Positions 43,340-43,513 of a DNA stretch of 64,000 nt are shown piece by piece. Numbering within the stretch: the stretch's first letter is position 1; every line of letters starts with the position of its first letter. Below the pieces are notes generated by a model, which ran no database searches, had not been told where the DNA came from, and was given only the letters and a program-made list of their open reading frames with translations. Origin of the DNA: Spirochaetia bacterium (lineage in GTDB: Bacteria; Spirochaetota; Spirochaetia; G963692905); NCBI GenBank assembly GCA_965261245.1, contig OZ253446.1, positions 2,069,587 to 2,133,586 of the forward strand, given 5' to 3'. The position numbers and the translations under genes are program-made.

Positions 43340-43513
43340 CGGTAGCCCAGCCTGTCGAAGCCCCCTGGTGTTGGTGTCAAAACTACTGTCTCACACAACC
43401 CCGCCCCATAGCCAATTTTGCAAACCCCCGGTGGCTGAGCCTGTCGAAGCCCCCGTGTGCTGATACCAAAACTACTATCTCACCCGCCCCCCTCGGTGCC
43501 CAGTTCGCAAACA
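43340..43513 (+). repeat. Two tandem ~87-bp direct repeats upstream of a surface-protein gene
   Basis: Unit AGCCTGTCGAAGCCCCC..G..CAAAACTACT.TCTCAC...GCAAAC occurs twice consecutively. Confidence 0.6.

Follow-up and report, generated by a model that had tools for sequence, protein, structure and literature searches.

RESULTS

A hairpin-headed tandem doublet between two divergent genes

Two head-to-tail repeat units of 89 bp that lie upstream of a surface lipoprotein gene in a spirochaete chromosome are probably a tandemly duplicated, selfish or neutral repeat resembling repetitive extragenic palindromes (REPs) and bacterial interspersed mosaic elements (BIMEs), situated in tolerant, promoter-distal intergenic DNA. 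They are unlikely to act as a switch specific to the surface-protein genes, because the hairpin that heads each unit fills noncoding DNA here and recurs nearly unchanged in at least nine phyla. The stretch analyzed, here called the window, comprises 64,000 nucleotides of contig OZ253446.1 (assembly GCA_965261245.1; positions 2,069,587 to 2,133,586) and comes from the chromosome of an uncultured bacterium in the Spirochaetota. Its methionyl-tRNA synthetase (MetRS) is just 49 to 55% identical to the best named matches, found in Spirochaetaceae metagenome-assembled genomes (MAGs), Alkalispirochaeta, and Spirochaeta dissipatitropha. Counts and coordinates refer to the window, as do the hairpin copy number and distribution given for this genome.

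A repeat search of the window aligned positions 43331 to 43402 with positions 43420 to 43491 over 72 ungapped nucleotides at 78% identity and a spacing of 89 nt (E = 5e-13 in a blastn comparison of the region with the window). In a gapped alignment, the homology covered ~92 columns (43331 to 43422 versus 43420 to 43514) with one 2-nt indel. Repeat search and gapped alignment together place unit 1 at 43331 to 43419 and unit 2 at 43420 to 43512, both on the plus strand, and the units are ~78 to 80% identical. A previous reading made from the DNA alone (the sequence-only reading) had described a ~87-bp tandem repeat here; the two head-to-tail units were confirmed, but the period is 89 and the repeat starts ~9 nt further to the left. 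Tandem Repeats Finder (TRF), run on the window, did not list the 89-bp repeat because there are only two copies and these have diverged by ~20%.

The segments between the hairpins of units 1 and 2 are ~75 to 80% identical to each other. A 17-nt core, AGCCTGTCGAAGCCCCC, is identical in the two units, and a second block conserved between them, CAAAACTACTNTCTCAC, is the best conserved sequence outside the hairpin and occurs only in the two units when the window is searched at up to 3 mismatches. A metagenome scan for the hairpin combined with CAAAACTACTNTCTCAC returned 19 matches, all of them attributable to chance, and neither the window nor the metagenome collection contained a further copy of the hairpin-plus-spacer combination. 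The last ~12 nt of unit 2 (TTCGCAAAC...) double as the beginning of the GC-hairpin module that follows, and TT(T/C)GCAAAC, with which each unit closes at its 3' end, shares homology with the start of that module; the duplicated segment therefore extends from the hairpin through the first dozen bases of the module. Neither the whole units as RNA, on either strand (z of 0.04 to 0.89), nor the entire tract as DNA folded better than shuffled sequences, and a structured 89-nt RNA was rejected because of this behavior of the whole units.

Repeat search also showed that a 12-nt inverted repeat encloses the doublet, with the left arm GTAGTGTATTGG at 43313 to 43324 on the plus strand and the right arm GTGGTGTATTGA at 43519 to 43530 on the minus strand, inside the next module. 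The two arms are the sole exact GTRGTGTATTGR matches in the window, and both open with GT[AG]G. No target-site duplication is evident from the sequence of the 43313 to 43530 segment.

The hairpin has an invariant loop and a covarying stem

The two short motifs singled out by the sequence-only reading are halves of one 25-nt hairpin, GGTGGC-TGAGCCTGTCGAA-GCCNCC, which heads each unit. The motif measures 25 to 27 nt; its 13-nt loop is invariant, and its stem covaries. The loop pattern TGAGCYTGYCGAA has 11 matches at up to 1 mismatch in the window, versus 0.28 expected, and all of them are located in three intergenic regions. The hairpin of unit 2 (43426 to 43458), which was outside the training set of the hairpin covariance model, obtained the top score of the window (42.7 bits; E of about 1e-7). 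The hairpin of unit 1 (about 43340 to 43366) is decayed, reading CGGTAGC-CCAGCCTGTCGAA-GCCCCC with 2 loop mismatches, and was not detected by the model at an E value of ≤1.

Flanked by other complementary sequences (CTTGCCC/GGGCAAG and GTAGAC/GTCTCG), the 13-nt loop also makes up arrays with 21- to 23-bp periods and a single copy at 46755; the latter, GTAGAC-TGAGCTTGTCGAA-GTCTCG, was located at 46745 to 46777 on the minus strand by the covariance model (34.6 bits) and the loop pattern. At 46611 to 46712 (plus strand; motif search and blastn), the motif is split, with its left half GGTGGCTGAGCC at 46615 and its right half GTCGAAGCCCC at 46689 separated by a 62- to 67-nt hairpin module (46627 to 46693), which is why the two motifs had appeared to be separate. 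GGTGGCTGAGCC is found exactly at 43430 and 46615 and has 3 matches at up to 1 mismatch, versus 0.37 expected, whereas GTCGAAGCCCC, at 43354, 43443, 46689, and inverted at 28786, is borderline when taken alone (4 versus 1.36 expected; 4 of 100 shuffles reach this count). These positions bear out the recurrence of the motifs that had been noted at 46611 to 46700 and, inverted, near 28780.

No Rfam family was assigned to the units or the hairpin: a gathering-threshold scan of the window returned two tRNAs only, an E-value scan of 42900 to 47300 gave only chance microRNA matches (E above 2), and nothing was reported on the hairpin in four hairpin-rich loci. Full-text literature searching turned up no published description of the hairpin sequence, in DNA or RNA form, or of its typical spurious translations.

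The hairpin recurs in at least nine phyla

One genome per GTDB species (596 Gb) was scanned with the 21-nt core GTRGCYSAGCCTGTCGAAGCC, for which we calculated ~2 chance matches. The core was present in at least 119 loci in at least nine phyla; those among the matches listed are Actinomycetota, Bacteroidota, Chloroflexota, Planctomycetota, Nitrospirota, Proteobacteria, Campylobacterota, Fibrobacterota, and Spirochaetota. Counted from the record titles, the matches listed include at least 40 from Actinomycetota (mostly Microbacterium but also Propionibacteriales), at least 48 from Bacteroidota, and at least 19 from Chloroflexota, and others are from Planctomycetia, Nitrospira, Marinicella, Allosphingosinicella, Sulfurovum, Chitinispirillales, a Treponemataceae MAG, and two unclassified bacteria. 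One archaeal contig is also among the matches listed, and there the core lies inside an open reading frame (ORF). The core is near an ORF that is homologous between this contig (Methanomethylophilaceae archaeon, locus L105; 2133 to 2153) and two Bacteroidales contigs (Alistipes sp. CAG:435, locus L093, 6225 to 6245; and locus L054); either it is embedded in a shared, possibly mobile gene or the contig was misbinned.

In other genomes, the hairpin occurs as singlets, as inverted doublets forming long palindromes (e.g., L094, L005, and L121), and as tandem arrays (L032, L036, L096, and L073) with periods of about 23 to 104 bp at the listed loci and of 21 to ~110 bp overall, and it often alternates with an oppositely oriented second stem variant, GGTCCC...GGGACC. 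The two-copy 89-bp array fits this habit of forming arrays and doublets. In Microbacterium algihabitans (L032), a five-copy hairpin array with a 49-bp period (7145 to 7514 and 7694 to 7910) is right beside the transfer-messenger RNA (tmRNA) gene; Microbacterium genomes contain many such arrays, which could be mistaken for clustered regularly interspaced short palindromic repeats (CRISPR). Carriage by plasmids or phages as the vector was considered and dropped, as the hairpin was seen in 8 of 72,556 plasmid records, in no phage record, and in 11 of 2.9 million viral contigs and is not a typical feature of them.

Covariation was assessed with 140 distinct 33-nt exact-loop instances from the listed loci and the window, from which the scan-pattern matches had been removed, so that the stems were not preselected. 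The three pairs adjacent to the loop are 89 to 96% paired (Watson-Crick or G-T), and the outer pairs are weaker. Pair 8-26 is C-G in 71 instances, G-C in 42, and T-A in 7; pair 9-25 is G-C in 53, C-G in 51, and A-T in 15. Over the seven stem pairs, 69.9% of the cells are paired, compared with 53.8% for shuffles, and a covariation score of 0.458 was obtained, compared with 0.193 ± 0.014 for shuffles (0 of 500 reach the observed value) and at most 0.194 for slid partners; these figures are indicative, because the instances are phylogenetically nonindependent. On pairs 5 to 10, G-T/T-G outnumber A-C/C-A by 66 to 13, and the structure therefore forms on the TGAGC...GAA strand, as RNA or as single-stranded DNA.

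At low-GC loci, the hairpin follows the end of a co-oriented ORF 38 times and stands beside a divergent start 15 times, in counts that derive from crude ORF calls and include nonindependent array copies. Over all loci, gene context judged from the same crude calls was uninformative in high-GC genomes. Clustering of the ORFs within 400 nt of the hairpin yielded only orthologous neighborhoods of close species and no hairpin-linked protein family. REP-associated tyrosine transposases (RAYTs), which in genomes with REPs are flanked by the repeats, are encoded by single-copy genes. No Y1/RAYT ORF was seen among 17 window proteins compared with Pfam or in a motif scan of the window and ~1 Mb of the other loci.

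The doublet lies outside the two promoters

The doublet is within a 603-bp gap between divergent genes, one with its ATG at 43023 (minus strand), encoding a 534-amino-acid hypothetical protein, and the other with its ATG at 43627 (plus strand). The product of the latter begins with a signal peptide of the lipoprotein type (...LLIAC); it also contains DUF7107/Dickkopf-like repeats rich in cysteine, and its C-terminal part is GLUG-like. Motif scans located a sigma-70-type promoter-like site, TTGACA-18-TATAAT (12 of 12 positions and TG-extended), at 43591 to 43620 on the plus strand. Its TATAAT ends 6 nt before ATG 43627, and a Shine-Dalgarno sequence is absent; because the site stops so close to the ATG without a Shine-Dalgarno sequence, the mRNA of the lipoprotein gene is predicted to be leaderless. 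The paralogue starting at 28656, unlike the 43627 gene, has a leader with AGGAGG. The divergent gene is preceded by the promoter-like site TTGGCA-17-TATCCT at 43030 to 43058 on the minus strand (motif scan).

Both promoter-like sites are gene-proximal and outside the repeats, which therefore occupy the space between the promoters, upstream of both. The doublet is 79 to 260 nt upstream of the -35 hexamer of the 43627 promoter, and since the units stop 79 nt before this hexamer, their copy number is unable to change the promoter spacing. A scan of the locus detected no promoter-like or terminator-like site upstream of or inside the units, and family scans of the neighboring proteins identified no regulator gene adjoining the doublet.

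The surrounding tract is a mosaic of dispersed modules

The ~530-bp tract between the divergent promoters is built wholly of dispersed modules, comprising a 23-bp hairpin array, an element here called module A, the 89-bp doublet, and the GC-hairpin module, and every part of 43074 to 43582 matches another intergenic site in the window. Nearly all large intergenic gaps share modules (at 7.5, 13.4, 17.3, 23.7, 28.8, 33.8, 43.3, 46.1 to 47.1, and 61.1 kb). The array at 43074 to 43143 (plus strand; TRF and repeat search) consists of 2.7 copies of CTTGCCCTGAGCCTGCCGAAGGG with a period of 20 to 23 bp and contains the hairpin-loop motif with the stem CTTGCCC/GGGCAAG. It is related to a 21-bp tandem array on the opposite strand at 13619 to 13727 (TRF and loop pattern), in which five copies of the hairpin-loop motif are situated between an insertion sequence (IS) transposase gene and the pyruvate kinase gene. 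The dispersed GC-hairpin module GGCGCGCCGC-CCAC-GCGGCGCC (43499 to 43582, plus strand; blastn) has an inverted relative at 33796 to 33855, and related GC-hairpin modules are found at 46860 to 46908 and 61195 to 61243.

Module A is a GC-rich, 165-nt multihelix element located by blastn and a structure model at 43140 to 43305; it is structured on the minus strand and points to the gene starting at 43023. By the same means, copies were found on the plus strand at 28888 to 29062, 72 nt upstream of a co-oriented thioredoxin-like gene (29134), and at 13464 to 13630, 161 nt before the pyruvate kinase gene (13791), which has the same orientation. Two more were located by the structure model in a segment of a related species, L002, at 8258 to 8447 (plus) and 17100 to 17265 (minus), adjoining unrelated genes; the former scored 68.5 bits (E = 2.5e-15) and was outside the training set of the model. 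The common fold has 36 pairs, 15 of them with compensatory changes (7 sequences from five independent loci, two of which are in the L002 species, whose orthologous proteins are 41 to 65% identical). All five independent copies lie 72 to 161 nt upstream of the co-oriented next gene, and the genes behind them (pyk, the thioredoxin-like gene, the 534-amino-acid hypothetical gene, NFACT_N, and FA_hydroxylase) are functionally unrelated. A permissive E-value scan of 42900 to 47300 gave no Rfam match for module A. In this spirochaete lineage, module A may represent an undescribed element that is structured and either mobile or 5' located, and within the tract it may be of greater interest than the doublet.

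The decamer GGGGGTAGCG, which contains GTAG and corresponds to the 3' side of the outer stem of module A, has 11 exact copies in the window, all within intergenic mosaics (positions 7651, 13611, 17409, 23748, 33934, 43150, 46860, 46948, 61146, and 61234); at up to 1 mismatch there are 27 matches versus 8 expected. A second tandem doublet, with units of 88 bp and 88% identity, is formed at 61145 to 61316 by a different module, ACGCTACCCCC ... AATGCGCCGC-loop-GCGGCGCCAACAA, relatives of which are at 23748 to 23831 and 46846 to 46960. Doublets of ~88 to 89 bp are therefore present at least twice in 64 kb.

Neighboring modules vary between haplotypes while the doublet is unchanged

A second haplotype, L001 (ENA ERZ26694059), matches positions 32322 to 53362 of the window at 96 to 99% identity; it appears to carry read errors, given its fragmented gene calls and 3x coverage. 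L001 is the same as the window from the 3' part of module A to ATG 43627, both units included, and the doublet copy number is thus unchanged in the only other haplotype (n = 2). In contrast to this, the 23-bp array has two extra copies in L001, and one hairpin of module A is swapped for a fully compensatory other (GGCGGGCGC...GCGCCCGCC versus GGCACCGCC...GGCGGCGCC). At 46.6 kb, the module content differs, a 135-bp insertion is present, and intact tandem hairpins replace the split motif. A contig from the same sample, L122, contains at 1815 to 3900 a shorter, recombinant paralogue of the 26074 to 28656 gene with a 5' part resembling the 43627 gene, which suggests ongoing recombination within the surface-lipoprotein family. 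On the basis of the L001 and L122 differences, both the mosaics and the surface-protein genes are plastic.

When 21 to 23 kb from each of L002 and L123, two related species (MetRS 65 to 68% identical), was searched with the hairpin model, nothing was found; the hairpin expansion is therefore lineage specific.

Relation of the repeats to the surface-protein family

Paralogues of the 43627 gene are located at 26074 to 28656 (minus strand), 47200 to 50133, and 50222 to 52930. The first of them is 85% identical to the 43627 gene (43627 to 46041, plus strand) over 995 nt, in inverted orientation, and its upstream region contains the module A copy at 28888 to 29062, which is about 89% identical to 43140 to 43305 (125 nt) and has the same orientation relative to the gene. 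A decayed unit-like remnant, TAGCCGATTGCAA...GTCGAAGCCCCAGTCTCAAA, was also detected there by motif search and local alignment (28777 to 28836, minus strand); 55 nt of it (28783 to 28836, reverse complement) align with 43409 to 43456, i.e., the end of unit 1 and the hairpin of unit 2, with a score of 19.5 compared with 10.5 ± 1.5 (maximum, 18) for shuffles. Considering the shared remnant, module A, and the 85% coding identity, the simplest account is that the two genes and their upstream regions descend from a common ancestor by segmental duplication, and a shared control module is unnecessary. Afterwards, one copy would have undergone the tandem duplication, whereas the second would have decayed or received other insertions.

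The sequence-only reading had proposed that shared upstream modules may coordinate or switch the expression of this family. The motifs do recur near family members (28783 to 28836 and 46.6 kb), and a motif search upstream of the family placed the hairpin or its remnants before three independently promoted genes. However, the complete unit is absent from the other family promoters, and the modules are not family specific: the hairpin array and module A stand beside the IS transposase and pyruvate kinase genes, module A is present twice in L002, and the hairpin extends to at least nine phyla, so the modules are generic. As for switching, no sign of it was found, with the doublet identical in the other haplotype and the units outside the promoter.

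DISCUSSION

Origin of the doublet and alternative explanations

The doublet could have originated from a REP-like hairpin with a stem of 3 to 7 covarying pairs and the TGAGCYTGYCGAA loop, which would have entered the site or been inherited there. Slippage or unequal recombination may then have doubled the hairpin and its spacer, a stretch of ~90 bp, after which unit 1 would have decayed, giving ~20% divergence and a mutated loop. The hairpin itself may be mobilized in trans, e.g., by an HUH/Y1 enzyme, as are REPs. According to this scheme, the doublet persists through the insertion tolerance of this DNA and not through control of the surface-protein family.

Several observations weigh against this account. 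In the window, each of the three family genes that have a promoter of their own is preceded by the hairpin or by remnants of it, whereas just one other gene pair has it alongside; however, the three family occurrences are not independent, owing to paralogy and adjacency. The copy number and distribution of the hairpin are known for 64 kb of the genome only. The doublet is 100% conserved while its neighbors vary, which could reflect constraint rather than too little time (n = 2). Neither the Pfam comparison of 17 window proteins nor the motif scan revealed a transposase able to move the hairpin, and the bracketing 12-nt inverted repeat is not accounted for by simple slippage.

A cis-regulatory role, in which the units would be paired sites 89 bp apart for a regulator or nucleoid protein, acting on the lipoprotein promoter or the divergent one or insulating both, is suggested by the position of the doublet between divergent promoters, at -79 to -260 from the -35 hexamer, by the conservation of AGCCTGTCGAAGCCCCC (17 nt) and CAAAACTACTNTCTCAC between the units, by the perfect conservation in L001 despite varying flanks, and by the unit-like remnant upstream of the paralogue. 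We consider such a role unlikely, since CAAAACTACTNTCTCAC is found nowhere else in the window, the AGCCTGTCGAAGCCCCC block belongs to the generic cross-phylum hairpin, the hairpin of unit 1 is decayed, no regulator gene is adjacent, and the unit is missing from the other family promoters. The covarying stem, with its excess of G-T/T-G over A-C/C-A (66 versus 13) on the TGAGC...GAA strand, would also be expected of a transcribed structured RNA, in which the hairpin or unit serves as a stabilizer or as a terminator-like or protein-binding element in a small RNA or long 5' leader. In addition, the hairpin tends to follow co-oriented ORFs at low-GC loci (38 versus 15), and U-A, tandem G.A/A.G, and G-C pairs within its loop might lengthen the helix, as judged from its sequence. 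However, single-stranded DNA also tolerates G-T wobble and tandem G.A, the 38-to-15 count comes from crude ORF calls with nonindependent array copies, whole units fold like shuffles, there is no Rfam match, and neither promoter-like nor terminator-like sites are seen upstream of or within the units; the RNA explanation is accordingly quite improbable.

That the doublet is cargo of a miniature inverted-repeat transposable element (MITE)-like or invertible cassette, namely, the 218-bp segment 43313 to 43530 between the GTRGTGTATTGR arms, is very unlikely. The arms bracket the doublet precisely as the only exact matches in the window, and both start with GT[AG]G, the typical REP foot (PMC3733652, PMC6006769). 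Yet the segment shows no evident target-site duplication and is single in the window, without a further copy in the related loci or the metagenome scan, its right arm is part of a longer module with a relative at 33796 to 33855, no recombinase gene is adjacent, there is no internal promoter for inversion to redirect, and the orientation in L001 is the same. Hardly credible is the proposal that the modules upstream of the paralogues are recombination substrates promoting gene conversion or rearrangement and so leading to antigenic variation. Over 995 nt, the paralogues, which are inverted, share 85% identity, with module A and the unit remnant common to their upstream regions, and the L122 paralogue, with its 5' part like the 43627 gene, is recombinant; however, the long homology is in the coding regions, to which upstream repeats of 25 to 170 nt contribute little, the modules are found equally beside housekeeping genes, and the 89-bp doublet is absent from the paralogue. 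A hammerhead-like core, a sigma-54 promoter, resemblance to tmRNA or a T-loop, and CRISPR were also considered, on the basis of the sequence, and dropped, because required positions did not fit or, for the last, the "spacers" are homologous.

Comparison with known repeat families

Like REPs, BIMEs, and REP doublets forming hairpins (REPINs), the hairpin is a short imperfect palindrome (~20 to 40 nt in REPs and 25 to 27 nt here, with the inner three pairs 89 to 96% paired), is confined to intergenic DNA (11 loop matches in three intergenic regions of 64 kb), and occurs as singlets, inverted doublets, and clusters mixed with short motifs (here, the mosaic with module A and GC-hairpin modules). 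Its arrangement and copy number vary between close strains, and its expansion is patchy and lineage specific. What defines classical REPs is the stem together with a 5' GT[AG]G foot, and their loops are mostly short (PMC3733652), whereas here the 13-nt loop is invariant and the stem variable. The hairpin also differs in that its loop is common to at least nine phyla, no RAYT gene was detected among the proteins and loci scanned, and the window copies are in promoter-side intergenic DNA and not after gene ends.

The GTAG- and CGTC-tagged REP superfamilies (Di Nocera et al. 2013, PMC3733652) and the double-foot REPs of RAYT subclass 2.4 (Quentin et al. 2018, PMC6006769) set a precedent for families common to distant phyla and for head-to-head and tail-to-tail dimers and clusters. 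The commonest hairpin variant, GGTGGC...GCCACC, resembles them in having 5' GTGG and 3' CCAC, and the window has 11 exact copies of GGGGGTAGCG, but the frequent variants GGTCCC/GGGACC, GGTCAC/GTGACC, and CTTGCCC/GGGCAAG are untagged. The foot is thus inconsistent, the GGTCCC, GGTCAC, GGTCGC, and CTTGCCC variants being without it, and what is conserved is GGT and the loop. The hairpin sequence is absent from the text and the text-form supplements of both PMC3733652 and PMC6006769. In its behavior, the hairpin resembles REPs, and it is unusual for its invariant loop across phyla.

Other repeat families are less similar. BOX elements of Streptococcus pneumoniae and the Correia/Neisseria miniature insertion sequence (NEMIS) elements are modular, strain-variable intergenic repeats that are often near promoters and have a tandem-repeatable internal module; these families are restricted to single genera, and their ends are marked by defined modules or by terminal inverted repeats that come with target duplications. 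The doublet has no sequence relationship to them, and its 89-bp unit is without a second site. Minisatellites of the mycobacterial interspersed repetitive unit (MIRU) type are tandem intergenic units of 40 to 100 bp in Mycobacterium that are defined by interstrain copy number polymorphism, whereas the 89-bp doublet is identical in two haplotypes and only the neighboring 23-bp array varies. A 25-nt, partly palindromic repeat at regular spacing is reminiscent of CRISPR, to which the Microbacterium arrays with periods of 49 to 53 are superficially similar. However, the "spacers," which in CRISPR arrays are unrelated to one another, are homologous here and in the arrays of other genomes, the window has two copies, one of them decayed, and no Cas family was identified in Pfam scans of seven neighboring proteins. 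Phase-variable promoter repeats, which occupy the coding region or the space from -35 to -10 and thereby change expression with their copy number, differ in position, since the units end at 43512, the -35 element starts at 43591, and the -10 element ends at 43620, and also in that the doublet copy number is unchanged in L001, the one other haplotype.

The importance of the doublet itself is very little: what could have been a phase variation or coregulation device is most simply duplicated generic intergenic repeat DNA. It is possible, albeit doubtful, that the hairpin represents an undescribed cross-phylum REP-like superfamily with an invariant TGAGCYTGYCGAA loop and a freely covarying stem, coresident here with module A as a second unrecognized element. 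Such a superfamily would imply that the loop is recognized by a conserved, horizontally travelling protein, or is under some other shared constraint, across Actinomycetota, Bacteroidota, Chloroflexota, Planctomycetota, Spirochaetota, and others. If uncatalogued, the hairpin would be a tractable case for asking which enzyme spreads or keeps REP-like hairpins across phyla and whether this takes place at the DNA or RNA level, and it would also account for recurrent spurious ORFs and false CRISPR-like arrays in annotation.

Other repeats and mobile elements in the window

The 67-nt hairpin module GCACCGCATA...TATGCGGTGC forms direct repeats (46087 to 46153 and 46627 to 46693; 95.5% identical) that flank an ORF at 46185 to 46601. 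The 138-amino-acid product has no Pfam match and, read from its sequence, looks coiled-coil with a hydrophobic C-terminal segment. The ORF and its flanking modules may be a small mobile cassette; the L001 haplotype is without the second copy of the module. Two diverged IS transposase genes of the rve type (integrase core plus HTH_32) are present on the minus strand, one (12325 to 13323) abutting module A and the hairpin array at 13.4 to 13.7 kb and the other (55805 to 56848) adjoining a tRNA gene (55648 to 55719). Two adjacent ORFs at 8343 to 11294 (minus strand) consist of 15 to 20 copies of a 96-nt (32-amino-acid) repeat with 60 to 85% identity. In addition, a segment within 23905 to 24700 is duplicated (23905 to 24060 versus 24323 to 24478, 87%; 24159 to 24308 versus 24526 to 24675, 81%) and includes a 21-nt tandem repeat of 6 copies at 24032 to 24156.

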